Source: Sodaliphilus sp.
GTDB taxonomy: Bacteria > Bacillota_I > Bacilli_A > RFN20 > CAG-826
Direction of reading: 5' to 3'
Assembly: GCA_963643355.1 (NCBI GenBank)
Contig: CAVIJE010000004.1
Span: 1 to 60,681 of the forward strand
DNA: 60,681 bases
Shown: piece by piece, positions 3,690-32,507 of the stretch
Layout of the letters: each line of letters starts with the position of its first letter
Position numbering within the stretch: the stretch's first letter is position 1
The notes under the pieces: generated by a model
The model's input: the letters and a program-made list of their open reading frames with translations, nothing else
What the model was told of the DNA's origin: nothing
Database searches by the model: none
Made by a program: the position numbers and the translations under genes

Positions 3690-6449
3690 TTAAGCCTCCA
3701 TTAATTTTTTAGGATGGATATCGAAGTCGTCATAATAGGACTCCGAAACCTCGCTATCTAATATTACATCAAGGAGGAGAGTTGGTTTACCTTGATTTTG
3801 CGAAATTCTCAAATTGTCAAAATGTCCCGTTCCAAGATATGAGTATGGAAGGTTGATTCCGTGGTCATCTTCCATTTTTCTTACAAATAGGTGAACGACC
3901 TTCGTATTTTGAATCTTTTTTCCAATGCTATTTTCAAGGGTTACGTTGTTTTCGCTTTCCCATTGGAAAGTCCATTGATCAATAAACTTATCTTTATAGT
4001 TGAGTTTTTCTTGGGCTTCGGCATCTTTTTTGAGATTTACGAAAATATATGTTTCACCGCTCTTTTCCTCAAATTTGGTTCCTTTCATGTAATTGAGGGA
4101 ATTTTCTTGAAGAATCATCATGATTTGTTCTTTGTAATAATTCCCCATTAATTTGAATTTTCCTTCGTAATCGCCAAAGTCAATATCATAACGGGATATT
4201 CCATAATTAATGGTATCCAAAAGGAAGGTTCTAAATTCTTCGCTAAAAGTAGGCAAAGAGAGTTTCCCATTAACAATTATATTTTTCTTCATTAGCAAAA
4301 AATAAGCGTGATTTAGCGTGTCTTTTGTGATTTTTTTAGAATCTATTAACGTTTCTAGATTAAAAGAATCGTCCAACATTTGTTTGATGATAAGATATTC
4401 ATCTTTTCTTACTAAAGGGAGGTAATCCGAGACATTATTAAGGAATTCAACCTCATTTTCATTAAATAAGGGGATGCTATCTTCGCCGACATTTTTAAGG
4501 AACTGGTAATAAGAACGATTCTTTTTGCCATTGGTTTTAGCTTTGATGAATTTAATTAAATCAGGAGCTATTTCACTATCCAAATAATCTAAATGCGTGG
4601 GATATGTAGGGGTTTTTAAATATTTTTTGAAATTTTTGTAGTCTTGTTCAAGCAATTCTCGCTTATAGAAATTTGTATTATCTAAGTAGTTAATGATTTC
4701 CTGTTTAGAAAGATCGTCGAAGAAAATCGAAAGACCTGCTATTCCTAGAGTAGAAAAGTTGGTTTTAACCATTGTCTTTAATGTATATTGATCGATAAAA
4801 GGGGAATTTGTTAGAGTGCCTAAGGCAAAGGCTATTTGCGTTGAGCGGCGATAATTGTTTCCGATAAAATCAAGTACCACGCAATAGTCTTTATTCGGAG
4901 CCTTTCTTAATCCTCTTCCTAATTGTTGAAGGAAAATGGTTGGTGATTCGGTTGGTCTTAGAAATAGAACCATATTAATTAAAGGAATATCCACTCCTTC
5001 ATTTAGAATGTCAACGCAACAGATTATTTCTAATGGATTTGTTTCGTCTTGCAAATTCTTGAAGGCTCGTATTCTTTCGCCAGTATCGTTGTTACCGGAT
5101 AAGAATATAGCGTTATATCCAACTTCAGAGAGTTTTTCTTTCATGCTTTGAGCGTGTTGCAAAGACGTGCAAAAGGCAATGGCTTTTAATTTTTGACCGT
5201 GAATTCTATATTTTTCTATTTGTTTAGAAATAAAAGAAACATTTTCTTCTTTAGCGATTTCTGAAGCGATAATCGATTTATTTTCGGAAGAATAATCAGC
5301 AAATTCATCGCGGATGGCATAATAATGAAATGGAACTACTAAATTATTGTTTAAAGCGTCTTTTAGTCTCATTTCAAAAGAAACGTTATTGCCGAAAAGC
5401 GAAAAAACATCTTGATTGTCCATTCTTTCTGGGGTTGCAGTTAAGCCAAGAAGGAAAGAAGGTTTGAAATAATTGATGATTTTGCTACCAGTTTCAGCAA
5501 CGATATGATGAACTTCGTCATAAACGATATAATCAAATTCTTTTGGGTCAAATTCATCAAGATGCTTAGCTATCATAGCAGATGAAGCAAAGATGAAATC
5601 AGCGTTGAGATCTTGATTTTTACCATTATATAATCCGTAAGATCTTCTTGCTTTAAAGACGTTGCTAAAAGTTTTAATGGCTTCAGAAAGAATAACGTCA
5701 CGATGAACGACAAATAAAAGCCTTTTTGCATCAAAGTTTTTAGCGTCAAAGGCGGCTAAATAAGTTTTTCCTGATCCGGTTGCGGCAATAACTAAAGATC
5801 TTTCAACGCCTAAGCTTCTATTTCTTATAAGCTCTTTTAAAGCTCTTTTTTGCATGGCATTTGGTTTTATTGAGCCATCTTCCTCGAAATCATAATCCAT
5901 ATCCCACTTAACTAAAGCGTATTCTTGGCTTGTCCTATATTTTTCGATCAAAGATGAAGAAAGTTCCAATGTTTGTTCCCATAACTCATCGAATTCTTTC
6001 TTTGCTTGATTATATGTTTGAATGTTTTTGCTATCGCTTAGCATGATATTCCATTCGACATTTTTTAATAAGGCAAAACGGGTGATGTTGCTAGAGCCGA
6101 TAAAAACGCTAACTCCATCCTTTCTTTCAAAGAGGTATCCCTTCGAATGAAATCCTGATTCACCAAAGCATTCAAAATCTAGATGAACTTGGAAATTTGG
6201 GTATTTATTGGCGAAAGAAAGAAATTCTTTCAAGGAAGGAATATCGGTGAAATTTTGATATGTGGTGGTAATTAGTCTTCCTTCCACTCCTCTTTCAAGG
6301 GCATCGACAAATTCTTTTTCAATAAGTTTGAATCCGGCGATTTTGATAAAACTTACGGAAAAAAAGAATTTCTCACATTCGTTTAATTCGGTTTTTAATT
6401 GTTCGAGAAACTTTGATTGGCAATGGTTGCTTAAAAATAAATCTTTCAT
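3690..6449 (-). CDS. SauUSI-family Type IV (modification-dependent) restriction enzyme: PLD nuclease, SF2 helicase, DUF3427
   Basis: 919 aa. The N-terminal PLD motif is HSKGYLFERKDGVSVFIGSSNIT (HxK..D..GSxN). Helicase motifs are AATGSGKT, DEVHH, GLTATPER and QQLGRGLR. A ~300-aa C-terminal domain sits in the position of DUF3427. Size and domain order match S. aureus SauUSI. Confidence 0.8.
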   Translation of the reverse strand: MKDLFLSNHCQSKFLEQLKTELNECEKFFFSVSFIKIAGFKLIEKEFVDALERGVEGRLITTTYQNFTDIPSLKEFLSFANKYPNFQVHLDFECFGESGFHSKGYLFERKDGVSVFIGSSNITRFALLKNVEWNIMLSDSKNIQTYNQAKKEFDELWEQTLELSSSLIEKYRTSQEYALVKWDMDYDFEEDGSIKPNAMQKRALKELIRNRSLGVERSLVIAATGSGKTYLAAFDAKNFDAKRLLFVVHRDVILSEAIKTFSNVFKARRSYGLYNGKNQDLNADFIFASSAMIAKHLDEFDPKEFDYIVYDEVHHIVAETGSKIINYFKPSFLLGLTATPERMDNQDVFSLFGNNVSFEMRLKDALNNNLVVPFHYYAIRDEFADYSSENKSIIASEIAKEENVSFISKQIEKYRIHGQKLKAIAFCTSLQHAQSMKEKLSEVGYNAIFLSGNNDTGERIRAFKNLQDETNPLEIICCVDILNEGVDIPLINMVLFLRPTESPTIFLQQLGRGLRKAPNKDYCVVLDFIGNNYRRSTQIAFALGTLTNSPFIDQYTLKTMVKTNFSTLGIAGLSIFFDDLSKQEIINYLDNTNFYKRELLEQDYKNFKKYLKTPTYPTHLDYLDSEIAPDLIKFIKAKTNGKKNRSYYQFLKNVGEDSIPLFNENEVEFLNNVSDYLPLVRKDEYLIIKQMLDDSFNLETLIDSKKITKDTLNHAYFLLMKKNIIVNGKLSLPTFSEEFRTFLLDTINYGISRYDIDFGDYEGKFKLMGNYYKEQIMMILQENSLNYMKGTKFEEKSGETYIFVNLKKDAEAQEKLNYKDKFIDQWTFQWESENNVTLENSIGKKIQNTKVVHLFVRKMEDDHGINLPYSYLGTGHFDNLRISQNQGKPTLLLDVILDSEVSESYYDDFDIHPKKLMEA

Positions 6450-6916: not shown

Positions 6917-9172
6917 TTATTTTTGTGGGGCAATATCAATTGTGAAGAAATAATTGTCAGCATTATTATTAGTGAAAGCCCAATATTCATCATTATTCCA
7001 ATACCAATGGCTTTCGGCATAACGAGCCCAGCTTGCAATCTTTTGCGTTCCAAGGTTCATGCCGCTAGCAGCATCGACAAACGTTCCTTCAAACGTTTTT
7101 CCATACCAGCTTGAAGCGCTGTTTTTGCCACGGAAATTATAGTTCTTACCAACTTCGAAATAATCTCCGCCTGGATTACCTTTTGCAACACAATTTAAAA
7201 CCATTCCCGTATCAGAGTTGTTAAGCTCCCTTTCCGTTCTATCATTGGTTAAGATTCGATAGGAAGATGAGCTGGCCTTCTTTAAGGAAACTAAAGTTTC
7301 AGCCGCTTGAATGGAAGATGAGGAAATAACATTGGAATTTGAAAGATAATGGATGTAGTCGTATTTGCTATCAACTGCTCCAGATGAACGTAATAAATTC
7401 CATCTAGTAACAATACGAGAGTGTTGCATCGCGCTTATGCTTGCGTGTTTGGACATATCATCTTTCGTTCTAGACACATTAACGCCATTCATCTCGATTT
7501 TATCGACGTTGAATGCGACGTCTAATTTGCATTTATTTCCTGGGTTTGAATAGGAAGCCGCATATTCGCTTTGATAGAAACCGCCACTTAAAATCGCTGA
7601 AGTCGTAAAGGAATATGTATCAGCGGTATCAGTGATGCTCTTATAAAATTTTTGAATGGCTTCACGAGCACTCTTATAGTTTTTCTCGAGCTCAGATGTG
7701 CTATATCCAGCAAAAAGGCGAGCTTCTGCAGCACGAGCCGTGTTCATATCTAAAATTTGCAATAAGTTGGCGGATAAAGTACGGACTGTCGCTTTTATTT
7801 CTCCGCAGAAATTATACATGCATTGGAGACGGGAAAGATAAGTATTGAGAATGGATATTTTTCCTGATGCACCAGTGATTCTTTCAGCTAATTCAATAAC
7901 GTAATTGCCATAGTTTTGAGCTTTTTCTTTGTTGCTAGAAAAATATTTTTTCATGAATTGCTCATAAATCATGGCCGTAACGAAACTACGAAGATTCTCT
8001 TTGCTTGCACCTTCTGGAAGATCGCTCTTTTTAGCAAGAGCGGCATCAATGTCTTTATCAAGCTCAGCCATGAAGCCATTTTCTACGATGTTGTTGTGTT
8101 TGCTTAAATGTGCTTTAGCATTCGAAAAATCTCCGATGTTCAAAGAGAAATTATAGCTTGGCGCATCCCCTAGATCCGCTAAAGGTGTAGATGTAATTTC
8201 ACCTTTGGCATTCTTGCTTAAAACGAGATTCACAGTTTGGGAGGAATTGACGAAATCGCGATAATAGGTTCCTGCGTGATCAGCAAGGTCACGGTTGAAA
8301 ACATTAATTGGGGAAATGCAATTAGTCGCAAAATCATTGATAGCAAGATTTAAGGTATTGAGATTGGTTTGATCGACAAGCGCTTCAGTGCGAACTATTT
8401 CATCGGCCAATTGCTGAGTGTTTTTCTCGAGCTTTGCGCCTAATTCATCGATTTTCCTATCCATTTCCTTTAATTGGTTCATGACGTCTTGAATAGTTGG
8501 GCTTGAGCTTGTGAAATTCTCCGCTAAAGTGCTAAATATGCCGAAGATTCCAGATACTATCGCTGTTGGATTTTCTGTTCCTACCCCAACGACGATCATG
8601 GCAATATTGCTAAACATTTGCATGATGAACTTGCCACCATCTTCCCAAGAAAGCTGGCTTGAAACGTATTTTTCTTCAAATTCAGCTTGTGGATCTTTGC
8701 TAATGGTATTATTGTCTTGGCGTTTTGTTACCATCACATATTCGTTTGCTGAGGTGACAGAAGAATGCACCAACATTCCGTAATTGCTTGAATCAGCCGA
8801 AGAAAAAGTAACATTAAAGCCATCTTTATCAGCAAGAGTTTCAATGCTATTAACAGGAATAGAGGCCGCTTTTAATGTAGCGTAATCCGCATAGCCTTTT
8901 CCATTCTCTTCTATGAGTTTAACGGCTTTATCGACATCATAAACGATGACATCGTCCTTATCTAATTCATCGGTAAAGATAGTAACGTCAGTATCGGCGT
9001 TAAAGCTGTAAATGTTGTCGCCTTTATTTTCTAGATTCGCTTGAATCGTTATGAAATCAGACATATCTTCTTTTGTATAAGACCATTTGTTAGTTTCTTC
9101 TTTTGAACAAGAAGCTAAAAGAGTAAACGTGAGAGAAGTAATAAGTAATAGACTTGTTTTCTTTCTTTTCAT
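6917..9172 (-). CDS. Large surface lipoprotein with a helical domain and hydrophobic hairpin
   Basis: I trimmed the ORF to MKRKKTSLLLITSLTFTLLASC (lipobox LASC), which has an AGGA RBS. The 751-aa product has a ~180-aa N-domain and a ~360-aa helical region containing FSNIAMIVVGVGTENPTAIVSGIFGIFSTLA followed by coiled coil. The C-terminal ~200 aa are Trp/Tyr-rich and beta-like. Confidence 0.8.
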   Translation of the reverse strand: MKRKKTSLLLITSLTFTLLASCSKEETNKWSYTKEDMSDFITIQANLENKGDNIYSFNADTDVTIFTDELDKDDVIVYDVDKAVKLIEENGKGYADYATLKAASIPVNSIETLADKDGFNVTFSSADSSNYGMLVHSSVTSANEYVMVTKRQDNNTISKDPQAEFEEKYVSSQLSWEDGGKFIMQMFSNIAMIVVGVGTENPTAIVSGIFGIFSTLAENFTSSSPTIQDVMNQLKEMDRKIDELGAKLEKNTQQLADEIVRTEALVDQTNLNTLNLAINDFATNCISPINVFNRDLADHAGTYYRDFVNSSQTVNLVLSKNAKGEITSTPLADLGDAPSYNFSLNIGDFSNAKAHLSKHNNIVENGFMAELDKDIDAALAKKSDLPEGASKENLRSFVTAMIYEQFMKKYFSSNKEKAQNYGNYVIELAERITGASGKISILNTYLSRLQCMYNFCGEIKATVRTLSANLLQILDMNTARAAEARLFAGYSTSELEKNYKSAREAIQKFYKSITDTADTYSFTTSAILSGGFYQSEYAASYSNPGNKCKLDVAFNVDKIEMNGVNVSRTKDDMSKHASISAMQHSRIVTRWNLLRSSGAVDSKYDYIHYLSNSNVISSSSIQAAETLVSLKKASSSSYRILTNDRTERELNNSDTGMVLNCVAKGNPGGDYFEVGKNYNFRGKNSASSWYGKTFEGTFVDAASGMNLGTQKIASWARYAESHWYWNNDEYWAFTNNNADNYFFTIDIAPQK

Positions 9173-9331
9173 AGTTTTTATTCCTTTATTTAAGTTTGCG
9201 ATATTATACACAATTGAAGGCAAAAACAATTAATAAATTCTAAATATTTTAAAAAAATTCCTTGTAATAACACGCAGTATGAAATGAAGAGAGATCAATT
9301 CAAACCATAATATGCTTTTATTTTTGTTTAT

Positions 9332-9879: not shown

Positions 9880-9910
9880 AGAAAAAGGTTTGATAGAATC
9901 CTATCAAACC
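9880..9910 (-). terminator. Terminator of the tRNA-Ala/tRNA-Met unit
   Basis: Perfect 10-bp stem GGTTTGATAG/CTATCAAACC with a 4-nt loop, followed on the minus strand by TTTTTC. Confidence 0.8.
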
Positions 9911-9922
9911 TATGTTTTCTTG

Positions 9923-9999
9923 TGGTGGCTAAGGGGGGACTCGAACCCTCGACATATCGGGTATGAGCCGATTGCTCTAACCAACTGGGCTACTTAGCC
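9923..9999 (-). tRNA. tRNA-Met (CAT); lysidine-modified tRNA-Ile2 not excluded
   Basis: 77-nt cloverleaf GGCTAAG...CTTAGCC-ACCA. The anticodon stem is ATCGG/CCGAT with loop CTCATAC. The T-loop is TTCGAGT and CCA is encoded. Confidence 0.85.
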
Positions 10000-10004
10000 A
10001 TAAA

Positions 10005-10080
10005 TGGTGGAACTTACCAGGCTCGAACTGGCGACCCCCTGCTTGCAAAGCAGGTGCTCTCCCAACTGAGCTAAAGTCCC
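10005..10080 (-). tRNA. tRNA-Ala (TGC)
   Basis: 76 nt, GGGACTTTAGCTCAGTTGGGAGAGC..., with the G3:U70 Ala identity pair. The anticodon loop is TTTGCAA and CCA is encoded. Confidence 0.95.
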
Positions 10081-10140: not shown

Positions 10141-10467
10141 TTATTCACTTACTTCAGTAATTTTTCCATCTGGGCCAGGAGTTGCTTTCATATAAGCGAC
10201 AATTGGATCGAAATTTTTCTCTTTCTTTCCAACTTTGCAAGCCGTAACCTTCTTAGCATTTCCCGAAACTAAAGCTTCGGCTAAATCATGGCAGCCAGCA
10301 TAACCACAGGCGCCGCAATTAGCGCCAGGAAGCATGTTCTCAACTTCTTTGATGCGCTTATCTTCTTCAACGTGCAAGAATTTAGCAGCTAAAGCAAGAA
10401 GGAAGCCAAGGACTAAACCAAGACCGGCAAGGACTAGAACGCCCCATAATATCGTAATTGGATCCAT
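10141..10467 (-). CDS. rnfB: Truncated-type RnfB: membrane anchor plus N-terminal Fe-S domain only
   Basis: 108 aa with N-terminal TM ILWGVLVLAGLGLVLGFLLALAA and the Cys cluster CGACGYAGC...C typical of the RnfB N-domain. There are no CxxCxxCxxxCP ferredoxin repeats. Confidence 0.75.
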   Translation of the reverse strand: MDPITILWGVLVLAGLGLVLGFLLALAAKFLHVEEDKRIKEVENMLPGANCGACGYAGCHDLAEALVSGNAKKVTACKVGKKEKNFDPIVAYMKATPGPDGKITEVSE

Positions 10468-10472
10468 ACTAA

Positions 10473-10688
10473 TTATTCTCCTTTATCTTCTTTGTGAAAT
10501 TCCTCAAAAAATGGGCAATTTGTTTTTTGACAATTTGGACACATCTCTGGATCAGGCTTGACATCTTCGCATCCCTTAGGAGCGGGCGTTCTTTTATAGG
10601 CTACGAAGCTAATAAAGAAGACCGCTAATAAGAAGATGATAATGGCAATGCTGATAATGATATAGACGTATCTTGGCATATTAAGCAA
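10473..10688 (-). CDS. Small TM protein with Cys-rich tail, embedded in the rnf operon
   Basis: 71 aa with one TM (YIIISIAIIIFLLAVFFISFVAY). The tail is CEDVKPDPEMCPNCQKTNCPFF, four Cys. It overlaps the rnfA stop by 8 nt. Confidence 0.6.
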   Translation of the reverse strand: MLNMPRYVYIIISIAIIIFLLAVFFISFVAYKRTPAPKGCEDVKPDPEMCPNCQKTNCPFFEEFHKEDKGE

Positions 10689-11271
10689 TCATTCCGCTTA
10701 AACCCATTATTGCCATAGCCATGATGGCAGCGGTAATAAGGGCTAAAGGAAGACCTTTCCACGCCTTTGGCGAATCAGATCCTTCTAATCTAACGCGGAT
10801 GGTTGAGAAGAGAACGATCATAATAAGGAAGCCTAAGCTTGTGCCGATAGCATTAGCCATCGAGGAAGCGAAAGAAAGACTATTATTTTCTTGAACAACG
10901 CCAAGAACTGCGCAGTTTGTCGTAATCAAAGGAAGATAGATACCAAGGCTCTTATAGAGTGATGGCGAATATTTTTTGATGACAAGTGCGACTAATTGAA
11001 CCAAAGATGCAATAACAAGGATGTAGACAATGGTATCTAAGAAAGATAAGCCAGCTGGAACAAGGATGTAATTGTAAATTGGATAACAGACTAGTGATGC
11101 AAGCATGATGACAAAGACGACTGCAACACCCATGCCTGCGGATGATTTAACCTTGGTGGAAACGCCAAGATAAGAACAAATGCCATAGAATCTTGAAAGA
11201 ACGACGTTATTAATAAGCATCGATGAGATGATGGCTAGCAAAAATGCCGTGAATAAATTTGTGGCTGTCAT
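10681..11271 (-). CDS. rnfA: Rnf complex subunit A
   Basis: 196 aa, polytopic, with the signature GIYLPLITTNCAVLGV. Confidence 0.9.
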   Translation of the reverse strand: MTATNLFTAFLLAIISSMLINNVVLSRFYGICSYLGVSTKVKSSAGMGVAVVFVIMLASLVCYPIYNYILVPAGLSFLDTIVYILVIASLVQLVALVIKKYSPSLYKSLGIYLPLITTNCAVLGVVQENNSLSFASSMANAIGTSLGFLIMIVLFSTIRVRLEGSDSPKAWKGLPLALITAAIMAMAIMGLSGMIA

Positions 11272-12029
11272 TATTTTGCCTCCTTAGCTACTTGAACGGA
11301 TGCTTTAGCAAGAGCAGCTTTTTTTTCTTCTTGAGCCTTAAGAAGAGCAGCTTTCTTAGCAGCCGCAGCCTTATTGGCCTTAGAAATATTTACACAAGCG
11401 ATTATCGCCTCAATTACGCCATAAACGATAAAGCCACCGGCTGGTTTGCTAAATAAAGGAATCGATAAATCTACATCGCCGAATTTAAGTATTGGAAGTT
11501 CTGTCTTAGGAATAAAGGTGAATACTGCACCAATTGAAATAACGCCTGTGCCTAAAATTTCACGAACAGCAGCGATAATTAAGATGGCGATGATATAGCC
11601 AATACCGTTTCCTAAAGCGTCTAAGAATGAATCATAAACGGTATTTTTCTTAGCAAAAGCTTCCGCTCTTCCTAAAACAATACAGTTAACGACAAGTAAG
11701 GAAATAAAGACGCCAAGCGAAGTATAAAGTTCCGGAAGGAAGGCTTCCGCAACCATCTTAACGATAGTAACGAAGGTTGCGATGATTATGATATAAGCTG
11801 GCGTTTCGATTTCTTCAGGAATCAATTTTCTTAATAAGGAAACCAAAACTGAGGAACCAATAAGAACAAAGGTGAAAAGTAAACCCATGCCAATGGCGTT
11901 TTCGATCGTGGTGGTGACAGCTAATGCTGGACATGTTCCAAGAAGTAAGACAAATAATGGATTTGCTTTCCAAATAGGATTAAGGAAGTTCTCTTTATGT
12001 TGGGAACGTGCAATAGAATTTGTTGACAT
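11271..12029 (-). CDS. rnfE: Rnf complex subunit E, with Ala/Lys-rich C-terminal tail
   Basis: 252 aa with LGTCPALAVTT and LVVNCIVLGRAEAFA. There is an unusual ~40-aa tail, KANKAAAAKKAALLKAQEEKKAALAKA. Confidence 0.9.
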   Translation of the reverse strand: MSTNSIARSQHKENFLNPIWKANPLFVLLLGTCPALAVTTTIENAIGMGLLFTFVLIGSSVLVSLLRKLIPEEIETPAYIIIIATFVTIVKMVAEAFLPELYTSLGVFISLLVVNCIVLGRAEAFAKKNTVYDSFLDALGNGIGYIIAILIIAAVREILGTGVISIGAVFTFIPKTELPILKFGDVDLSIPLFSKPAGGFIVYGVIEAIIACVNISKANKAAAAKKAALLKAQEEKKAALAKASVQVAKEAK

Positions 12030-12040
12030 ATCTCTCCTCC

Positions 12041-13486
12041 TTATTTCTTATAAAGATCCACGGCTTTTTGAATGCCTCTCCATACCGCATTCAAGGTATA
12101 GGTTGCACCAGTTTTAGCGCCTGGTTCTTTTCCGTCGAAGTTATTAAGATAATCATTGATTGTCTTTATTTGACCTGCACCACCAGTTGACCTAAGAGTT
12201 GCAAGTTTGCCTAAGAGCGGATCATCTTTTTCGCCAGATATGGCAAGTAAGAAAGTCGTATGGGATTCGATATCAGCATAAATGCCTTTGGAGGCGTTTT
12301 CTTTCTCGGCCATATCAACGTTAATCTTATAAATCTTTCCTACTTCTTCTGTCTTTTCTTCATCAGAATAAAGTGTCCAGTAACGGAGAACTTTTTCCTT
12401 ATCCGTTGAAGCTTCTAAGACTGTAGCCTCGGAAATAGCTTTATAGGCAGACGAAGAGACAATTGTTGGAATGGCATTAACGCATGTTTGAAGACCGTTG
12501 GCCTTTAAATCATTATAAGCGTCAGTAACCATTGACTTTATCGCTTCGCAATATGTGCCTGAAGCCGTGTTAAGAACTTCTTCGGATGGATTGGCATTAT
12601 ATTTCGTGACGAAATCTTCGACAGTTTTCTTTGTTGTCTCATCTTCGATTGTGTTATTTGTTATTGTCAATTTTCCATAATCGTTAGAATTAAAGCCAAC
12701 AGTGATATAGAGGTTTCCGCCTGCATCTTTGAATTTGCAAGCATATAAACGGCCGATTTCACCAGTCATCGTTTCATCTTCTAAGAAGGTGTAGGTCTTT
12801 TTGATGGTGTCAGATGAGCCAGAATACACAGAGGTTGTGGAATATGAAACGTTATATCCATTATTCTCTCCCCAAATGGCTTTAACATCTTCTTCAAGAT
12901 TTTCGATAAAGCCATCGCCTAAGGTTGAATAATGATCTCTAGCGGCGTTAATCATGCTTTGTAAGGTCGTTGAAGCGTATGTCGCACCACATTTAACATT
13001 ATTTAACGTTGCATCTGATGGATTGGCATTATATGGTTCAACGTATTTAGGTTCAAAAACGTTCTTATAGGAAATCGTGTCTTTGACTAAATAAACCTTT
13101 CCTAAGCTTGGAGTATCGTTACTTCCTGAAATGCCGACCATTGCTTGGATATCGCCATACCCATGAACGTCGGTCACCTTTGAAGTGTAAACGTAGCCCA
13201 ATTCATTATTCGATGAATCGTAAATGATTTCATAGGAATCTAAATAAGCATTTTCTTCGATTGCTACCTTATCGGATTTATGATCGTAGGCAGAGAAGAT
13301 AGATAGATATCCTGCGCCTGCTTTTTTAAGATTGTTCTTTTCAATAATTGGGGAAGTCACTAAATTAAGCGAAGTAAGAATGATCGCTGAGCCACCGGCG
13401 ATGGCGCATAATATTCCACCGACTTTCAACCAATTCAGAACTTCCTTGCTGTTTGTTTTTTCTTTTGCCATATTATTACGCTCCAA
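12041..13486 (-). CDS. rnfG: Rnf subunit G with three tandem FMN-binding-type domains
   Basis: 481 aa against ~200 aa for typical RnfG. One N-terminal TM is followed by three ~140-aa modules. They end in NANPSDATLNNVKCGATYAS, NANPSEEVLNTASGTYCEA and GAKTGATYTL, which are [S/T]GA[T]-like flavinylation motifs. Confidence 0.8.
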   Translation of the reverse strand: MERNNMAKEKTNSKEVLNWLKVGGILCAIAGGSAIILTSLNLVTSPIIEKNNLKKAGAGYLSIFSAYDHKSDKVAIEENAYLDSYEIIYDSSNNELGYVYTSKVTDVHGYGDIQAMVGISGSNDTPSLGKVYLVKDTISYKNVFEPKYVEPYNANPSDATLNNVKCGATYASTTLQSMINAARDHYSTLGDGFIENLEEDVKAIWGENNGYNVSYSTTSVYSGSSDTIKKTYTFLEDETMTGEIGRLYACKFKDAGGNLYITVGFNSNDYGKLTITNNTIEDETTKKTVEDFVTKYNANPSEEVLNTASGTYCEAIKSMVTDAYNDLKANGLQTCVNAIPTIVSSSAYKAISEATVLEASTDKEKVLRYWTLYSDEEKTEEVGKIYKINVDMAEKENASKGIYADIESHTTFLLAISGEKDDPLLGKLATLRSTGGAGQIKTINDYLNNFDGKEPGAKTGATYTLNAVWRGIQKAVDLYKK

Positions 13487-14627
13487 AATTATAGCCAGTC
13501 ATGCACCAGGCAAAGATTCCTAAGGCCAAAACGGCGATAGAGGCGATACTAACCCAGCTCTTCCAAGTGAATTTGACTTGGCTCCATTTGTAATAATCGA
13601 TAAAGCAGCCGATTGCATTGCCCATAAGGATGGCATAAGCCATTCCTTCAGGCGCTGAAGCAAAGGTGCGGATAAACACAACGATAATAGCAATGATCAT
13701 GCCATACATAACTCTTGATGGAGAAGTTAGAGGCATCGTAACTGGCTCGATAATCATATAAGCCATACCGAAAATAACCCCGCCAGATAAAAGTTGATAC
13801 AAGGCATAATATAGAGGATTGACATTCTTACCAAGCATGAACAATCCTGCAATCAAGCTCATCGCTAAGAAGGTTAGCAAGAATGAAAGAACGACTTTCC
13901 AATCAGCATCTCTTCTTATTAATAAATAAACAAGGCCAATAAGTAGAGGAATCTTGCAAGATTCGCCAATTCCGCCATTAATTTGGCCAAAGAATAAAGA
14001 GGAAATGTTTTCTAAACTATAGGCTGACGCATTGAATCCATTAGCTAAAGATGTTGCATCAGAGGTAAAGGAGGCGGCACTTCCTAAGAAAGAAATGTTA
14101 AATGGATTGTAGTGATAAGCACCGCTGAATTTGCCATTGAAGCAAACTAGAAGGAAAACAAAGGAGACAGCCGCAGGATTGAAAATATTCTTTCCTAATC
14201 CGCCAAAGCAAAGTTTTCCAAAAATGATGCCAAAAAGAGAAGAAACGATGAGAATGTAATAAATAAGCCATTCTGGATCGGTATCTCTATTTTGAACCAT
14301 TAAGCCAAAGATGATGCCGGAAATTATTGGCGAAAGAATATCGGTAAGGTTTAAAACTTGCCAGAAATTCTTCTTTGTTTTTTCATCTTTGCTAAATAAG
14401 GCCTTGCGGTTTTTTATAAGCACGAAAACCATCTCTGAGGCAAGCATCGTAAAAACTGGAATCAAAACGTTCCTGATCGCATACACCCCATAGGCTAAAA
14501 ACGTGAAAATTAAGGTAGGAGCTAAGGCAATGATGACATCAATAAGCATCCATTCGACAGATTGCTTATGGACTTTCTTTGGCATTGCTTCTACTTGAGT
14601 TTCTTTTTTAATAACTTCTTCTGCCAT
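13476..14627 (-). CDS. rnfD: Rnf complex subunit D
   Basis: 383 aa, polytopic, NqrB/RnfD-like. A candidate FMN site is SFTSDATSL. It overlaps rnfG by 11 nt. Confidence 0.9.
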   Translation of the reverse strand: MAEEVIKKETQVEAMPKKVHKQSVEWMLIDVIIALAPTLIFTFLAYGVYAIRNVLIPVFTMLASEMVFVLIKNRKALFSKDEKTKKNFWQVLNLTDILSPIISGIIFGLMVQNRDTDPEWLIYYILIVSSLFGIIFGKLCFGGLGKNIFNPAAVSFVFLLVCFNGKFSGAYHYNPFNISFLGSAASFTSDATSLANGFNASAYSLENISSLFFGQINGGIGESCKIPLLIGLVYLLIRRDADWKVVLSFLLTFLAMSLIAGLFMLGKNVNPLYYALYQLLSGGVIFGMAYMIIEPVTMPLTSPSRVMYGMIIAIIVVFIRTFASAPEGMAYAILMGNAIGCFIDYYKWSQVKFTWKSWVSIASIAVLALGIFAWCMTGYNFGA

Positions 14628-14639
14628 AAAATCACCTCA

Positions 14640-14888
14640 TTAAGGAAGCTTTGCAACAACTTTTGCCCTTTTAACTATTGTTGCTAAGTCAATGTTGCTA
14701 GGACATGCTTCATTGCATTTCTTGCATTCATCGCAAATGGTTGGATTAAGCAATTTAACCCTTGCCTTGTCCACTGGCATCGTCTTCATCGTCGTCATAA
14801 TAAGAACGGGATTAAGACCAAGTGGGCATTTTTGAATACAGCGAGCGCAACGAATACAAGCCTGAGCGCTTTTTTTACTCGTTTCCAT
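14640..14888 (-). CDS. 82-aa 2x[4Fe-4S] ferredoxin corresponding to the C-terminal module of RnfC only
   Basis: Contains CIRCARCIQKCP and CDECKKCNEACP. It is the first gene of the rnf operon. No NADH/FMN-binding region precedes it, and only 135 bp separate it from purB. Confidence 0.75.
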   Translation of the reverse strand: METSKKSAQACIRCARCIQKCPLGLNPVLIMTTMKTMPVDKARVKLLNPTICDECKKCNEACPSNIDLATIVKRAKVVAKLP

Positions 14889-14957
14889 ATTGAAAAAATC
14901 CTTTCAGAACACTTTTATTTTACTTCGTAAATTGCTTAATGTTAAACTCAAAAAGTA

Positions 14958-14999
14958 TTAAAAAAGTTAGGTTTCTTCGAAGTTTGAGGAGCCTAACTT
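14958..14999 (-). terminator. purB terminator
   Basis: Minus strand: AAGTTAGG, loop, CCTAACTT, then TTTTAA. Confidence 0.6.
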
Positions 15000-17751: not shown

Positions 17752-18126
17752 TTATTTTTTTGCGATTTGATTCTTAAGTGCCTCATAGGTCTCATCAGAA
17801 ATGAAATGTTCCATGCGGCAGGCGTCTTTTAAAGCAGTTTCCTTGCTAACGCCAATAGACATAAGCCAAGAAGAAATCGTTTGATGCTTATCATATACCT
17901 TTTTAGCAATGTCATAGCCAGCAGGCGTTAGATAAAGTTGGCTCTTAAGTCCTAAAGCAACATAGCCCTTCTCCTCTAATTTATGCAAAGCAATAGATAT
18001 AGAAGCTTTGGAATAGCCAAAAGACGAAGCAAGATCAACGGCGTGAATTTCTTTCATCCCTTGTTCTTGTAACATCAAGATTCTCTCTAAATAATCCTCT
18101 GCGGACTCTAATGCGTCAATAGCCAT
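17752..18126 (-). CDS. DtxR/MntR-family metal-dependent transcriptional regulator (short form)
   Basis: 124 aa with a winged-HTH (AVDLASSFGYSKASISIALHKLEEKGYV) and a dimerisation helix region. It is divergent from feoA. Confidence 0.85.
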   Translation of the reverse strand: MAIDALESAEDYLERILMLQEQGMKEIHAVDLASSFGYSKASISIALHKLEEKGYVALGLKSQLYLTPAGYDIAKKVYDKHQTISSWLMSIGVSKETALKDACRMEHFISDETYEALKNQIAKK

Positions 18127-18171
18127 AAAAATAACCTCACTTTTTTTCGCGGTAATGATATTCTAACTCAA

Positions 18172-18227
18172 ATTTTGGTTAAGTGCTACTAACTTTTTCT
18201 TGATTTAGTTCATTAGAGGACTATAAT
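18172..18227 (+). promoter_or_regulatory. feo promoter with candidate DtxR-type operator
   Basis: TTGATT (18200-18205), 16 nt, TATAAT (18222-18227). An imperfect inverted repeat, TTTGGTTAAGTGCTACTAACTTT, lies just upstream of the -35. Confidence 0.5.
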
Positions 18228-18250
18228 TCTCGTATAAGGAGTAACTAACT

Positions 18251-18469
18251 ATGCCAATAATGATTGCACCAACTAATCAAGACTTGACCATCGTAAGAAT
18301 TGTCGGTAATGATAAAACTTGTAAGCATCTTAGAGAGCTTGGGGTTGTTCAAAATATGAAAATTACTAAACTTTCTCATAACGAAAGTGGAATAATCGTT
18401 CGTATCGGAGAATCACGTCTTGCACTTGATAACAATATTGCTAAGTCCATTATAGTTGAGGCTAACTAA
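18251..18469 (+). CDS. feoA: FeoA domain protein
   Basis: 72 aa, SH3-like FeoA pattern, first gene of the feo operon. Confidence 0.8.
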   Translation: MPIMIAPTNQDLTIVRIVGNDKTCKHLRELGVVQNMKITKLSHNESGIIVRIGESRLALDNNIAKSIIVEAN

Positions 18470-18499
18470 TTTTAACATTTTTGCATAGGAAAAAGTTTT

Positions 18500-18796
18500 A
18501 TGAACGAAAATGAACTTGCACCTACCGAAATCGGTTTAGGTGACGAACTTCCTTTAAGCGCCCTAAAAATCGGGATGAGCGGAAATATCATCAAGGTTGA
18601 AGGCGAAGGAAGAATCAAAAGACGTATCTTCGATATGGGATTAACTCCTGGTGCTGAGGTTTTCTTAAGAAAGAAAGCTCCACTTGGTGATCCACTCGAA
18701 GTTACATTAAGAGGTTATGAATTGACCCTTAGAAAAGATGAGGCCGTTCACGTCATCGTTAAAGTGACTGACCTTTCTGAGAAGGAGGGAGAATAA
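18500..18796 (+). CDS. feoA: FeoA domain protein (second copy)
   Basis: 98 aa with MGLTPGAEV...PLEVTLRGYELTLRKDEA. Confidence 0.85.
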   Translation: MNENELAPTEIGLGDELPLSALKIGMSGNIIKVEGEGRIKRRIFDMGLTPGAEVFLRKKAPLGDPLEVTLRGYELTLRKDEAVHVIVKVTDLSEKEGE

Positions 18797-18797
18797 T

Positions 18798-21119
18798 ATG
18801 GCTGAAAAAACATTAAGATTTGCCTTAGCTGGCAACCCAAACTGCGGTAAGACAACCCTTTTTAATTCCTTAACCGGCAGCACAGCATACGTTGGTAACT
18901 GGCCAGGCGTTACGGTTGAGAAAAGATCAGGCGTTTATAAGAAAAAAGGAAGCAACGAAGGAGTCGAAATCATCGACCTTCCTGGTATTTATTCCCTTTC
19001 ACCTTATACCCCTGAAGAGGTCATTTCAAGAAATTACATTCTCGAAGAAAAACCAGATTTAGTCATCAACGTCCTTGATGCGACAAACCTTGAGCGTAAT
19101 CTTTATATGACGACGCAAATTCTTGAGATGAATGTTCCTGTTGTTGTTGCCTTAAATATGAGCGACGCCCTTAAAGAGAGCAAACAAACAATTGATACCG
19201 TCTCTCTTTCTAAGGCTCTTGGCGTTCCAGTCATCGAGATTTCCGCTTTAAGAAAGAAAAACCTCGACGAATTAATGGAATTGGCAGTCAAAACTGCAAC
19301 TAAATCTCGTGAAGGCGTTTCTCTTTGGGCTTCAAAAGAAGATGAAGAACTCATCGAAAAAGCGATGATTTCCTATAAAGAGGAAGAAATCGCCAATCCT
19401 CGTTTCCACGCCATCAAAGCCCTTGAAGGCGATGAAATCGAAAAAGAAAAGAACGCTCGCGCTTATGAGAAGGTGTCTTCTCTTACGAATGCCGAAGAAT
19501 ATGAAGCTGACAGTGCCGATAAACGTTATAAGTACATCACATCTAAGCTTGCCATCTATCGCAGTGGAGCCGTAACTCAAGAAAAGAAGAAACTTTCCAA
19601 ATCCGATAAAATCGATAAGGTTTTAACCAATAAATGGGCAGCTCTCCCAATCATGATTGTTGTCCTCTTCTTAATCTTCCACCTTGTCTTTGCCTCTGAC
19701 TTATTCTATCTCCATGCATTTGGGGTCGACTTCGGAGATGGCTATCAAGGTTTGATCCATTGGACGATTGATGGAGAAGAATTCTATCCATTCAAAGAAC
19801 TCTTCTACACTGCCGATGGTATTAATTCTCCAGGTACAATCTTGCAAAACCTCCTTGGCGCAGGCAACGATGCCGGTATCCAAGGCATGATCTGTGGCGG
19901 AATCAAGCAATTGCTTATTGTTTGGGAATCACCAGAATGGCTAGTCGGATTCATCTATGATGGTGTCCTTAATGGTATTGCATCTGTCTTAGGATTCGTT
20001 CCACAAATCCTTCTCTTATTCGCCTTCTTCTCCTTCCTTGAAGATAGCGGATATATGGCTCGTATCGCCTTCGTTCTTGATAGAATCTTCCGTAGATTCG
20101 GTGTCTCGGGACGTGCTTTCTTACCAATGATCATGGGCTTTGGATGCGGTGTCCCAGCCATGATTAACACAAGAACCCTTGCTTCCGATAAAGAAAGAAC
20201 AAAAACCATCCGCGTTATTCCTTTCTTCACTTGTGGAGCAAAAGCCGAATTCTTAGTAACGATTGCTGCTGCGGTTGCTGCTGCAACATCTATCGATGCT
20301 GGTTTATTCACATTCTTAATTTATGTCTTTGGCGTCATTGTTGCTATTGCTGCAGTCATCGTCATGAATAAAACAACTCAACGTGAAAAAGTCCCTCCAT
20401 TTATCATGGAGCTTCCTGCCTATCACGCTCCACAATTCCAAGCTCTTGCCTTACACGTTTGGGATCGTGGCAAACACTATATCAAAAAGGCATTTACAAT
20501 CATCTTTGCTTCAGCAGTCTTGATTTGGTTCTTATCAAGCTTCACGCCTGATTGGCAATTCATCGACGCTAACAAAGCATTAGGGGTCTCCGATTCCATT
20601 CTTGCTCACATTGGTATGATTCTCTCTCCATTATTTGTTCCAATGGGCTTCGGAAATGTTCAAGGCGGAAGCTATGGCTGGACATTTGCGGTTGCCTCAA
20701 TCCAAGGTATTGTCGCTAAGGAAAATGTCGTTGCTACTCTTGCTCAATTAGCCACAGCCGTTGGTACTGAAACCGAAGAAGGCTTAGAAGGTCTTAACGC
20801 TATTATCTCTGCTGCTAACGCAAGTGGAGGTAACATCAATACCGCTTCATTGGTCGCCTTCGCCGTCTTCAATATGACAACAATTCCTTGCTTTGCCTCT
20901 ATTGCTACTGCAAAAGGAGAATTAGCAAGCAAACGCGATATCACCTTAACGGTTATCTTCTGGATTGTTACTTCCTATGTCTTAGGATGCCTTACTTATG
21001 TAACATTCAACTATCCAGCTTGGGGATGGAGCATCCCAGTGGCCGTCATTATTCTTGGTGGACTTGGCATCTATTTCTACGATCGCTACGCCAAAAACAA
21101 AGAAGCCGCTAACGCTTAA
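18798..21119 (+). CDS. feoB: Ferrous iron transporter FeoB
   Basis: 773 aa with an N-terminal G-domain (GNPNCGKTTLFN, DLPG) and a polytopic C-terminus. Confidence 0.95.
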   Translation: MAEKTLRFALAGNPNCGKTTLFNSLTGSTAYVGNWPGVTVEKRSGVYKKKGSNEGVEIIDLPGIYSLSPYTPEEVISRNYILEEKPDLVINVLDATNLERNLYMTTQILEMNVPVVVALNMSDALKESKQTIDTVSLSKALGVPVIEISALRKKNLDELMELAVKTATKSREGVSLWASKEDEELIEKAMISYKEEEIANPRFHAIKALEGDEIEKEKNARAYEKVSSLTNAEEYEADSADKRYKYITSKLAIYRSGAVTQEKKKLSKSDKIDKVLTNKWAALPIMIVVLFLIFHLVFASDLFYLHAFGVDFGDGYQGLIHWTIDGEEFYPFKELFYTADGINSPGTILQNLLGAGNDAGIQGMICGGIKQLLIVWESPEWLVGFIYDGVLNGIASVLGFVPQILLLFAFFSFLEDSGYMARIAFVLDRIFRRFGVSGRAFLPMIMGFGCGVPAMINTRTLASDKERTKTIRVIPFFTCGAKAEFLVTIAAAVAAATSIDAGLFTFLIYVFGVIVAIAAVIVMNKTTQREKVPPFIMELPAYHAPQFQALALHVWDRGKHYIKKAFTIIFASAVLIWFLSSFTPDWQFIDANKALGVSDSILAHIGMILSPLFVPMGFGNVQGGSYGWTFAVASIQGIVAKENVVATLAQLATAVGTETEEGLEGLNAIISAANASGGNINTASLVAFAVFNMTTIPCFASIATAKGELASKRDITLTVIFWIVTSYVLGCLTYVTFNYPAWGWSIPVAVIILGGLGIYFYDRYAKNKEAANA

Positions 21120-32506: not shown

Positions 32507-32507
32507 A

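Follow-up and report, generated by a model that had tools for sequence, protein, structure and literature searches.

A conserved Rnf operon of gut Bacilli with RnfC reduced to its di-cluster domain and partners probably other than NAD

The Rnf variant encoded in the window analysed here (the whole stretch of 60,681 nucleotides) probably has partners other than NAD, since its NADH-handling part has been deleted and its RnfG subunit has been tripled. The host clade is a lineage of Bacilli that is associated with the gut, has a low GC content and is uncultured (Mollicutes-like MAGs). At a probability of about 0.5, we read the complex as a minimised Rnf core that would accept electrons from ferredoxin and either send them outward via its multi-flavin RnfG or return them to a non-NAD Fe-S partner.

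The RnfC remnant and the reality of the short operon

The operon consists of seven open reading frames on the minus strand (14888..10141), which confirmed the coordinates of the earlier note. They are transcribed in the order C82, RnfD, RnfG, RnfE, RnfA, X (a 4-Cys membrane peptide) and RnfB108. The features are as follows:

14959..14999 (-), purB terminator-like hairpin AAGTTAGG ... CCTAACTT, then a T-run; read from the sequence
14917..14945 (-), promoter-like site TTAACA-17-TAAAAT upstream of the operon; 10/12 matches, a consensus match only
14640..14888 (-), C82, the RnfC remnant, 82 aa; C-terminal 2x[4Fe-4S] ferredoxin domain only
13476..14627 (-), RnfD, 383 aa; PF03116, 209 bits
12041..13486 (-), expanded RnfG; TM helix and three tandem FMN-binding-type domains
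12902..13297 (-), RnfG domain 1, residues 64-195, motif KCGAT; Thr169 codon 12982..12980
12488..12901 (-), RnfG domain 2, residues 196-333; degenerate copy by hhalign
12044..12487 (-), RnfG domain 3, residues 334-481, motif TGATY; Thr462 codon 12103..12101
11271..12029 (-), RnfE, 252 aa, with an Ala/Lys-rich C-terminal tail; PF02508, 206 bits
10681..11271 (-), RnfA, 196 aa; PF02508, 183 bits
10473..10688 (-), X peptide, 71 aa from TTG or 68 aa from ATG at 10679
10141..10467 (-), RnfB108, 108 aa; TM anchor, FdI [4Fe-4S] domain and conserved 28-aa tail
9923..10080 (-), tRNA-Ala and tRNA-Met, immediately 3' of rnfB
9886..9911 (-), terminator-like hairpin closing the unit; sequence scan

Of the 435 positions in the rnfC model, C82 matches 356-429 alone, at 48.6 bits (the cut-off is 246); it aligns with residues 363-432 of solved RnfC chains and carries two CxxCxxCxxxCP motifs (Cys 11, 14, 17, 21 and 52, 55, 58, 62), as expected from the claim that the RnfC position holds the di-cluster domain alone. 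In RnfC, the two [4Fe-4S] clusters of this domain normally connect RnfD with the RnfC flavin. All eight Cys residues are invariant among the orthologues, and a dN/dS of 0.03-0.08 indicates strong purifying selection. The C82 sequences form a single cluster at 50% identity, and their closest relatives outside the clade are the C-termini of RnfC proteins of 430-440 aa (55% identical). C82 is basic (pI 9.4). In this it resembles the Fd domain that is bound in full-length RnfC and departs from soluble ferredoxins, which are typically acidic.

The full operon was found in about 16 independently assembled gut or rumen contigs (L001-L003, L005-L006, L008-L015, L026-L028), and the partial operons of L004, L017 and L029 are consistent with the same architecture. 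These assemblies come from different projects and include 11 GTDB species representatives with RnfD proteins 71-90% identical.

Short genes of this kind could arise where an assembly breaks, where rnfC is frameshifted or where an operon is dying. One split or frameshifted rnfC was indeed seen (L023), and many of the ~100-aa C82 matches in the exhaustive search are contig-end fragments starting at an internal GGPMMG motif. However, the limits of the short genes are identical in the independent assemblies, and chance and assembly error are therefore excluded for this architecture. The dN/dS values of C82, X and RnfB108 (0.02-0.08) speak equally against decay and artefact. Upstream of C82 there are only 135 bp of non-coding DNA, with the hairpin, the T-run and the promoter-like site, and purB lies beyond; the purB terminator had been placed there before, and our terminator scan passed over its hairpin because of the long loop. 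Finally, three RnfC N-terminal domains served as tblastn queries against the window and 11 related loci, and no N-terminal remnant with an E-value below 1 turned up. The artefact explanation is thus effectively refuted, and the earlier view that C82 is not a decayed rnfC holds; the short form is a conserved state. The NADH/FMN module of RnfC, about 355 residues, is deleted in this clade only; with RnfC reduced to the di-cluster domain, the complex itself cannot bind NAD(H) in the manner of RnfC.

A full-length rnfC, perhaps with a long rnfB, might be encoded elsewhere in the genome and join this core, which would make it an ordinary ferredoxin:NAD+ oxidoreductase with C82 as a spare or regulatory paralogue. 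The inspection covered a 60-kb stretch of this genome and, for each related locus, flanks of up to 9-10 kb, which leaves room for such a gene, and a full-length RnfC (P0129) is present in a MAG from the same sequencing project. We nevertheless regard this as very improbable. P0129 belongs to a different assembly, and the RnfD adjoining it shares 54% identity with the L016 type and about 31% with the RnfD of this clade. Every relative having a full-length rnfC carries it at the head of the operon, exactly in the place of C82, which keeps its eight cluster ligands at a dN/dS of about 0.05, so that both proteins would compete for one RnfD site. A genome scan based on RnfD, and tuned to the RnfD of this clade, gave one locus per genome.

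The membrane core and the tripled RnfG

The Pfam scores of RnfD, RnfE and RnfA bear out the description of the membrane core as canonical. RnfD aligns with the solved RnfD and NqrB chains and keeps the FMN-attachment Thr, although in a motif without its Gly (SDAT instead of SGAT) whose context differs among the clade members. RnfE exceeds the NF009070 and TIGR01948 cut-offs. The Cys pairs of RnfE (LGTCPAL, VVNCIVLG) and RnfA (YGICSYLG, TTNCAVLG), which hold the intramembrane Fe-S centre, are conserved in both proteins. Judged from the residues, the membrane and outer core has lost none of its cofactor sites, namely the FdI [4Fe-4S] site of RnfB, the RnfA/RnfE Cys pairs, the flavin-attachment Thr residues of RnfG and RnfD, and the two [4Fe-4S] sites of C82.

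RnfG has 481 aa when counted from a TTG start; its true start is probably the ATG at 13471, giving 476 aa, because the homologues point there. The protein scores far under the curated RnfG cut-offs, and a fold search with the whole RnfG gave no significant match, those of the best probability being FMN-binding domains (E about 0.6). Meanwhile, residues 25-193, including the TM anchor, match an RnfG model (E=3.6e-7). The expansion of the extracytoplasmic subunit proposed earlier was resolved by hhalign into three tandem copies, with probabilities of 98.5-99.6 overall: domain 2 matches domain 1 at 99.1 (E=7e-19) and domain 3 matches it at 99.6 (E=2e-24). In domain 1, C166, G167 and A168 are invariant and T169 is kept in at least 90% of 24 homologues, and T462 of domain 3 is invariant in all 24, whereas the motif column of domain 2 is not conserved in the homologue alignment. 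At the sequence level, RnfG is thus a triplicated FMN-binding domain in which two of the three flavin-attachment Thr residues are conserved. The expanded RnfG also adjoins full-length RnfC in two relatives (L018 and L019), and so its expansion probably preceded the RnfC truncation.

The short RnfB and the X peptide

Residues 6-80 of RnfB108 align with residues 4-77 of the C. tetanomorphum RnfB, that is, with the TM anchor and the FdI domain, whose ligands are C51-x2-C54-x4-C59-x17-C77. The Pfam search of RnfB108 returned PF04060 alone, with no further Fer4 domain or FdII/III polyferredoxin, in agreement with an RnfB reduced to its anchor and first cluster. Its dN/dS of 0.02-0.05 indicates strong purifying selection.

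Short RnfB proteins (101-127 aa) are widespread, forming 248 protein clusters at E<=1e-5. In all six complete operons outside the clade (L016, L018, L019, L020, L030, L031), the short RnfB and the X peptide stand beside a full-length RnfC of 436-444 aa. On the ferredoxin side, the short RnfB is thus a normal, functioning variant and gives no sign of lost ferredoxin coupling; together with the Cys peptide it is an older and wider module than the RnfC truncation. Two claims of the earlier note, that the substrate modules were lost jointly and that the ferredoxin-coupling part is absent, do not survive this comparison: the losses were two separate events. The loss of the polyferredoxin part of RnfB would be ancient and shared by a much broader group, in which RnfB is always paired with X, and that of the NADH/FMN module of RnfC would have occurred at a different time and in this clade alone.

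The X peptide has one predicted TM helix followed by a cytoplasmic G-C-x9-C-x2-C-x4-C motif. Its four Cys residues, P35, P37 and G39 are invariant over 10 lineages, some of them with full-length RnfC, and its dN/dS of 0.04-0.08 again indicates strong purifying selection. No match to X was found in Pfam, NCBIfam or the PDB. By analogy with NqrM of Na+-NQR, X could tentatively be viewed, at somewhat less than even odds, as an assembly factor delivering Fe or Fe-S to the RnfA/E centre and not as a subunit that carries electrons. Kostyrko and colleagues reportedly described NqrM in 2016 as having one TM helix and four conserved Cys residues, the same architecture as that of X. In the nqr operon, the gene beside apbE encodes NqrM, a small, membrane-bound protein of Fe-S maturation (PMC12174285; PMC6209661). 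The gene for X is flanked by rnfA and rnfB, and in L016, L018, L019, L030 and L031 apbE comes after rnfB. On the other hand, X has no detectable similarity to NqrM/DUF539, the sole hint being a match below threshold (E=1.5) to PF12669, the FeoB-associated Cys-rich membrane protein. X was also present in all seven operon types examined, a set of short-RnfB types only, which suggests a tie to the shortening of RnfB rather than to maturation in general.

Electron path and comparison with known systems

In Rnf, FdI and the Fd domain of RnfC take part in electron transfer (Vitt et al. 2022, PMC9588780; 2025 review PMC12174285). In the path that we infer for this variant, from donor to acceptor and including the direction of flow and ion pumping, reduced ferredoxin (or flavodoxin) would pass electrons directly to FdI of RnfB, possibly via a metal or Fe-S site on X. 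RnfA/E would carry them over the membrane to the first covalent FMN of RnfG, driving the export of Na+ or H+, and the second covalent FMN, in RnfG domain 3, would hand them to an extracytosolic acceptor. Some or all electrons could alternatively run through RnfD to the exposed C82 clusters and on to a cytoplasmic Fe-S protein other than RnfC. NAD+ would not be reduced by the complex itself. A multi-flavinylated RnfG has been proposed as a second, outward path and linked with extracytosolic electron transfer (Meheust et al. 2021, PMC8238504). A cell-surface electron conduit is plausible here, because RnfG has three FMN-binding domains, two of them with the conserved flavinylation Thr. Neither an extracytosolic acceptor, apbE nor a conserved partner gene was found within 9 kb of any short-form locus or in the window. 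RnfD and C82 are strongly conserved and not obviously needed for a purely outward RnfB-RnfA/E-RnfG path; a cytoplasmic partner for C82 therefore probably exists and may be the main route, and none was found in the window and the related loci.

It is possible, if rather doubtful, that the classical half-circle path is kept and only the output enzyme has been exchanged, with RnfD-bound C82 as the docking port for a separate soluble redox protein that stands in for the missing RnfC module. In that case the complex would continue to pump ions as a ferredoxin:X oxidoreductase and might even be linked to NAD(P) in trans, with the extra RnfG domains as a mere side branch. The strong selection on C82 and RnfD and the basic character of C82, shared with the bound Fd domain, agree with this. 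A candidate partner is a 975-aa NAD(P)H-binding Fe-S flavoprotein (29579..32506) with a GltD/NfnB-type NAD(P)H/FAD/2x[4Fe-4S] core and extra Fer4 domains on its flanks; in one species (L001, L002, L003, L007), the gene that comes next after rnfB and the tRNA genes encodes a 930-aa homologue. However, all other members of the clade have different downstream genes, the flavoprotein of the window is 15 kb off within a hypB-X-hypA unit, and the two proteins, merely 55% identical, may be paralogues.

The minimised core that we favour shares the order C-D-G-E-A-B with the Na+/H+-translocating ferredoxin:NAD+ oxidoreductase RnfABCDGE (7ZC6 of C. tetanomorphum, 9ERI of A. woodii, 8AHX of A. vinelandii), as well as clear RnfD, RnfE and RnfA homologues with their cofactor ligands, the RnfB TM anchor with a mobile FdI [4Fe-4S] domain, the RnfC Fd domain with two [4Fe-4S] motifs, and a membrane-anchored RnfG with a GAT flavinylation motif. 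It differs in lacking RnfC residues about 1-355 (N-terminal arm, NuoF-like NADH/FMN domains, SLBB) and FdII/III of RnfB, in the extra 4-Cys membrane peptide and in the three RnfG domains instead of one. Known RnfB proteins have 2-7 clusters besides FdI (PMC12174285).

The six short-RnfB/X operons of related gut Bacilli also have an RnfB of 105-118 aa with PF04060 only, a 65-82-aa TM peptide (G-C-x6-9-C-x2-C-x3-4-C) between rnfA and rnfB, an AK-rich RnfE tail and, in L018/L019, an RnfG of ~500 aa. Unlike this clade, they keep full-length RnfC, most of them have apbE directly 3' of rnfB, where the tRNA genes lie here, and four of the six have a normal RnfG of 171-182 aa. The RNF clusters with multi-flavinylated RnfG (Meheust, Light et al. 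2021, eLife, PMC8238504) likewise have more than one FMN-binding domain with the conserved flavinylation Thr; in this clade, however, the middle domain lacks the motif and apbE is not adjacent. A text search of that paper found no report of the loss of the RnfC NADH module, the short RnfB or the X peptide.

An RnfADEG/NqrBCDE core that swaps its cytoplasmic input and output modules has precedents in Na+-NQR and in the two-subunit NQR/RNF-like systems, the latter being thought to move electrons one way, to an outer FMN domain. In this clade NqrF, an NAD_binding_1 fusion on RnfD and a quinone site are all missing. The RnfC homologue NqrA has lost all of its cofactors; the RnfC homologue of this clade is the opposite case, having retained the clusters and lost the rest. 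The Rnf of Methanosarcina acetivorans (a ferredoxin:methanophenazine route with cytochrome c) also has a physiological acceptor other than NAD+ and an extra outward redox partner, but it has all six standard subunits (rnfC_Methano model, 438 positions), and its outward partner is a multihaem cytochrome, whereas that of this clade consists of extra flavin domains.

The RnfC remnant and the spread of the short-form operon

Features of the window around the rnf operon
14888..10141, minus strand: rnf operon of seven tightly packed ORFs, in which the order rnfC-D-G-E-A-B is kept and one extra small gene lies between rnfA and rnfB
17752..21119: feoAB operon with an iron-dependent repressor, just upstream of purA-purB
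9923..10080: tRNA-Ala and tRNA-Met genes downstream of the rnf operon, then a terminator-like hairpin
6917..9229, minus strand: 770-aa predicted lipoprotein (LLASC lipobox) without a family match
3690..6449: 919-aa ORF, considered as an Fe-S flavoprotein and rejected, as it is a helicase
40124..43192, plus strand: 1022-aa glycoside hydrolase family 3 protein with a permuted domain order (C-terminal GH3 domain, residues 95-379; N-terminal GH3 domain, residues 734-918)

The first gene of the rnf operon is preceded by 135 non-coding bases that contain a hairpin and T-run after purB and a promoter-like site. In comparison with the related locus L008, where a DUF3427 helicase gene comes directly next to the tRNA genes, the lipoprotein gene is inserted between the two; the TGAS tetrapeptide present in this lipoprotein may well be due to chance.

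Of the 435 positions of the rnfC model, the 82-aa protein encoded in the RnfC position (C82) covered only 356-429, with a score of 48.6 bits (cut-off 246), and it aligned with RnfC residues 363-432 of the structures 7ZC6, 9ERI, and 8AHX. The C-terminal ferredoxin domain of RnfC comprises residues 359-435 and carries two [4Fe-4S] clusters (Vitt et al. 2022, PMC9588780). The NADH/FMN-binding module of RnfC (RnfC_N, Complex1_51K, and SLBB) was not found in the operon, and RnfC cannot provide the complex with an NAD(H)-binding site. When residues 1-355 of three related RnfC proteins of full length were used as tblastn queries against the window and 11 short-form loci, only chance matches (E≥1) were obtained. 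We consider it unlikely that a full-length rnfC lies at another site of the genome. The AlphaFold2 model of C82, built from a nine-sequence alignment, had a pLDDT of 41 and was discarded as unusable, and the pI of C82 is not shifted in comparison with the same domain of full-length RnfC.

The RnfD scan of one genome per bacterial species gave 13 loci, the look-ups of exact proteins added four more places (L001-L004), one of them on the same contig as L007, and the metagenome scan yielded another four loci. The full architecture was present on approximately 16 independent contigs (L001-L003, L005-L006, L008-L015, and L026-L028) in the order purB, C (82 aa), D, G (481-497 aa), E, A, the extra small gene (71-86 aa), and B (108-110 aa), while the shorter contigs L004, L017, and L029 were partial but consistent with it. 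The identity of RnfD to that of the window was 71-90%. The host genomes are MAGs of uncultured bacteria from gut and rumen; where their labels are informative, they read "uncultured Mollicutes", "Bacillales UBA743", "Erysipelotrichaceae", or "Bacilli". It should be noted that several species-representative MAGs of this Bacilli clade are mislabelled as Hallerella, Bacteroides uniformis, Escherichia coli, Lachnospiraceae, Alistipes communis, and Prevotella (L005, L008, L009, L011, L013, and L014).

All eight Cys residues of C82 are invariant among the orthologues, and its pairwise dN/dS against the window is 0.03-0.08. Given the number of contigs, the invariant Cys residues, the low dN/dS, and the lack of an N-terminal remnant, assembly error, frameshift, and decay are excluded. 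The earlier note had proposed that the RnfC position holds the di-cluster module only, and the match to model positions 356-429 alone agrees with this; its view that C82 is not a decayed rnfC is supported by these dN/dS values, contigs, and the missing remnant, and the spread survey showed that the short forms are not an assembly artefact.

The exhaustive search with C82 returned a single 50%-identity cluster at E<1e-30. Its next-best matches were the C-termini of full-length RnfC proteins of ~437 aa (55% identity) and contig-end fragments; the closest full-length RnfC (P0129) is encoded beside an RnfD of the L016 type in another MAG. As only one C82 cluster was found and the next matches are the C-termini of full-length proteins, we conclude that the truncation of RnfC is a derived event in this one clade. 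The other short RnfC-like proteins were mostly contig-end fragments beginning at GGPMMG; P0173 was rejected as a split rnfC and P0151 as an archaeal Sdh-adjacent ferredoxin. Among them, only the 104-aa ORF at L022:135-449 resembles an independent truncation. This ORF, located directly upstream of rnfD, encodes the RnfC di-cluster domain only and shares 72% identity with the C-terminus of the full-length RnfC of locus L019 but only 43% with C82. It may represent a second, independent truncation of RnfC in an L019-like lineage, although the contig has a length of only 572 bp.

The short RnfB and the four-Cys peptide

The 108-aa RnfB contains only the PF04060 "FeS" domain, and its residues 6-80 align to residues 4-77 of 7ZC6_B. 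This region comprises the TM anchor and FdI, the mobile first [4Fe-4S] domain, which carries electrons to the centre in RnfA/E (Vitt et al. 2022, PMC9588780). While the RnfB proteins listed in a 2025 review have 2-7 clusters beyond FdI (PMC12174285), the protein of the window ends at residue 108 without any Fer4 domain, so that FdI is not followed by even one 2x[4Fe-4S] domain. Its four Cys residues are invariant, and the pairwise dN/dS against the window is 0.02-0.05. The search with this protein found 248 protein clusters at E≤1e-5; the 120 matches listed were all 76-127 aa long (nearly all 96-127) and contained PF04060 only, and the annotation of some of them is RnfB, with "Bacilli bacterium" or "Candidatus Enteromonas" as the source.

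The extra gene between rnfA and rnfB encodes a membrane peptide (X) of 71 aa, or of 68 aa if the alternative ATG start at 10679 is used. Its four Cys residues are invariant as well (pairwise dN/dS against the window 0.04-0.08), and in distant lineages they form the pattern P-x-P-x-G-C-x6-9-C-x2-C-x3-4-C after a single TM helix. No match to X was found in Pfam, NCBIfam, or the PDB profiles. A nearly full-length match to PF12669, "FeoB-associated Cys-rich membrane protein", was below the threshold (E=1.5). Homology to NqrM (PF04400/DUF539) was ruled out, since none of the 10 X peptides matched even at E≤10, and the likeness is confined to the architecture of one TM helix and four Cys residues. 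X could nevertheless assist the assembly of the RnfA/E centre in the manner of NqrM.

The neighbourhoods of five short-RnfB matches and of the outlying RnfD match L016 were then viewed.

Operons with a short RnfB and a full-length RnfC (protein lengths in aa)
L016: RnfC 436, RnfG 171, X 71, RnfB 118; apbE directly after rnfB
L020: RnfC 444, RnfG 174, X 65, RnfB 116; apbE not adjacent, ~4 kb downstream
L030: RnfC 436, RnfG 182, X 72, RnfB 108; apbE directly after rnfB
L031: RnfC 436, RnfG 176, X 70, RnfB 105; apbE directly after rnfB
L018: RnfC 439, RnfG 496, X 80, RnfB 115; apbE directly after rnfB
L019: RnfC 439, RnfG 502, X 82, RnfB 105; apbE directly after rnfB

The module of short RnfB and X is thus old and common and works next to a complete NADH-binding RnfC. 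Since the two coexist in these relatives, the short RnfB with X cannot signal the loss of the ferredoxin side. The earlier note was right that RnfB is reduced to its anchor and first cluster without polyferredoxin repeats (PF04060 only). Its idea that both substrate modules were lost together did not hold: there were two events, as the short RnfB stands beside a full-length RnfC in all six operons. These operons represent a widespread Rnf subtype that seems not to have been described, and the module of short RnfB and four-Cys peptide is likely an unrecognised one comprising hundreds of protein clusters. In annotation pipelines, the short proteins go under RnfB or "(Fe-S)-binding protein", and X receives no name.

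In L018, L030, and L031, apbE is followed by NusG_II and Hpre_diP_synt_I genes. In the clade with the short RnfC, the tRNA-Ala and tRNA-Met genes occupy the place that apbE has in L016, L018, L019, L030, and L031; neither the whole 60-kb window nor the 9 kb inspected around each short-form locus yielded an apbE gene.

The membrane core and the expanded RnfG

RnfD matched PF03116 with 209 bits and TIGR01946 with 165 bits, under the 207-bit cut-off of the latter, and carries PF03116 alone, without a fused NAD_binding_1 domain. The Thr aligned with the flavinylated Thr of the TGAT motif in Azotobacter vinelandii RnfD (8AHX_D) is kept across the clade, but not the Gly preceding it (SDAT in the window), and the surroundings of the motif differ between members of the clade. 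RnfE and RnfA matched PF02508 with 206 and 183 bits, respectively; RnfE passes the curated cut-offs, and RnfA reaches 224.8 bits against a cut-off of 229.3. Both retain the two membrane Cys residues of the shared Fe-S centre, and for all three core proteins the Rnf models gave better scores than the Nqr models. The conserved Thr of RnfD and the Cys pairs of RnfA and RnfE mean that every redox site from FdI of RnfB to the RnfC clusters is present, and that only the outermost adaptor modules are gone.

Two side observations concern these subunits. At its C-terminus, RnfE has a low-complexity tail of ~40 residues rich in Ala, Lys, and Glu (window 11271..11390, minus strand), which was found in all relatives examined, including those with a full-length RnfC, and which the 174-position Pfam Rnf-Nqr model does not contain. 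In the spore-forming relative L020 (L020:5339-6913), the 524-aa RnfD has a C-terminal extracytoplasmic extension with the FMN-binding-type motif ACGATYT and looks like a fusion to an extra flavin domain, while the RnfG of this locus is normal-sized.

In the window, rnfG is a 481-aa ORF, for which the homologues point to an ATG start at 13471 (476 aa). The protein has a TM helix and a conserved KCGAT motif, where the motif expected of RnfG is [S/T]GA[S/T], and its N-terminal part matched the RnfG models weakly (22-30 bits against cut-offs of 102 and 205). The AlphaFold2 model (mean pLDDT 84) and the alignment of 24 homologues showed a long N-terminal helix followed by three units that share a pattern of strands and helices. 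The profile-profile comparison (hhalign) of the three segments gave probabilities of 99.6, 99.1, and 98.5, and RnfG is therefore a triplicated domain, which bears out the earlier claim that the extracytoplasmic subunit is expanded. Domain 1 is the one that matches the RnfG models; in its KCGAT motif, C166, G167, and A168 are invariant and T169 is kept in at least 90% of the 24 homologues. Domain 2 has lost the motif, and domain 3 carries xGATY with T462 invariant in the same homologues. The whole-model Foldseek search against the PDB gave no match at E≤0.001; its matches of notable probability were FMN-binding domains only (8P2A, 8P2B, and NqrC 4XHF; E ~0.6), and phmmer against the PDB sequences found nothing meaningful.

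With at least two FMN-binding domains bearing a flavinylation site, RnfG belongs to the type of Meheust 2021. As multi-flavinylated RnfG proteins in RNF clusters, with a second path proposed to extracytosolic acceptors, were noted by Meheust et al. 2021 (PMC8238504), this part is already known in kind; genomes of the present clade were absent from the supplementary data of that paper that were examined. The RnfG of L018 resembles that of the window in that a motif can be recognised only in its first and its last domain; the RnfG of L019 has three such motifs. As both loci combine an expanded RnfG with a full-length RnfC, the expansion probably preceded the truncation of RnfC.

Possible electron paths and comparison with known systems

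Rnf is a central energy-conserving enzyme of anaerobes. In the complex studied here, the full transmembrane cofactor chain is kept, and one extra conserved flavin site is present outside. We infer the function of this minimised Rnf from uncultured genomes. FdI would be reduced directly by a soluble donor (reduced ferredoxin or flavodoxin) with or without X, which may contribute a metal or Fe-S site between the donor and FdI. The electrons would then pass through RnfA/E to the first FMN of RnfG, coupled to ion export, and might leave from the domain-3 FMN to an external acceptor. Alternatively, they might return via RnfD to C82 and to an Fe-S protein of the cytoplasm that is not RnfC. We give this reading, with entry at FdI, passage through RnfA/E and RnfG, and either external exit or return via C82, a probability of roughly one half. 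No external reductase or conserved partner gene was found in the window or in the locus flanks.

RnfD and C82 are strongly conserved, which speaks for a cytoplasmic port that is in use, so the main rival is that the output enzyme was swapped and that the new one docks on C82, which we consider possible but rather unlikely. A conserved neighbour as the partner of C82 was ruled out, as the downstream genes vary between species. One candidate for such an enzyme is an Fe-S flavoprotein of 975 aa whose NAD(P)H module is of the NfnB/GltD type; a homologue with 55% identity to it is encoded directly after the rnf operon in one species. However, this adjacency is not kept elsewhere, and the protein is therefore only a lead.

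The 975-aa flavoprotein and its neighbours in the window
29214..33179, minus strand: three-gene unit of hypB, the flavoprotein, and hypA, with overlapping or abutting stop and start codons
29579..32506: the flavoprotein, in which residues ~390-810 form an NfnB/GltD-like NAD(P)H/FAD/2x[4Fe-4S] core; further Fer4 motifs and an unassigned Cys-rich stretch of 320 residues at the N-terminus

The position of such a flavoprotein between nickel-insertion genes is unusual.

The most far-reaching reading, which we hold to be possible but rather unlikely, is a new kind of respiratory enzyme in this clade, an Rnf-derived ion-pumping ferredoxin:extracellular-acceptor oxidoreductase, in which the one-cluster RnfB with X would be the entry and the two-flavin RnfG the exit, NAD would be uninvolved, and the orphan RnfC Fe-S domain would serve as a second cytoplasmic port. 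If true, reduced-genome gut Bacilli would carry out extracellular electron transfer that is driven by ferredoxin and involves neither quinones nor cytochromes. Should the tripled flavin subunit be the outlet, these bacteria could discard fermentation electrons outside the cell straight from ferredoxin, which would alter their metabolic models.

To our knowledge, all the described forms of Rnf use a complete RnfC and couple ferredoxin to NAD, or to methanophenazine in methanogens. Text searches of the literature found no report of an Rnf without the NADH module of RnfC or of the type with short RnfB and X, and the searches for truncated or absent RnfC, or for Rnf in these lineages, gave nothing relevant. 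A conserved Rnf without its NADH dehydrogenase part would surprise a bioenergeticist. Such a naturally minimised form, which keeps only the cofactors nearest to the membrane, would separate the ion-pumping parts from the exchangeable adaptors, and this minimal core is a compact and experimentally attractive target for structural and mechanistic work.

The two-subunit NQR/RNF-like system has NqrB/RnfD fused to a cytosolic NAD_binding_1 domain, which is missing here, and neither the NqrF (Fer2/FAD/NAD) nor the cofactor-less NqrA of Na+-NQR is encoded in the operon. Meanwhile, Na+-NQR, the NQR/RNF-like systems, and the Rnf of methanogens are all precedents for the exchange of input and output modules around the core.
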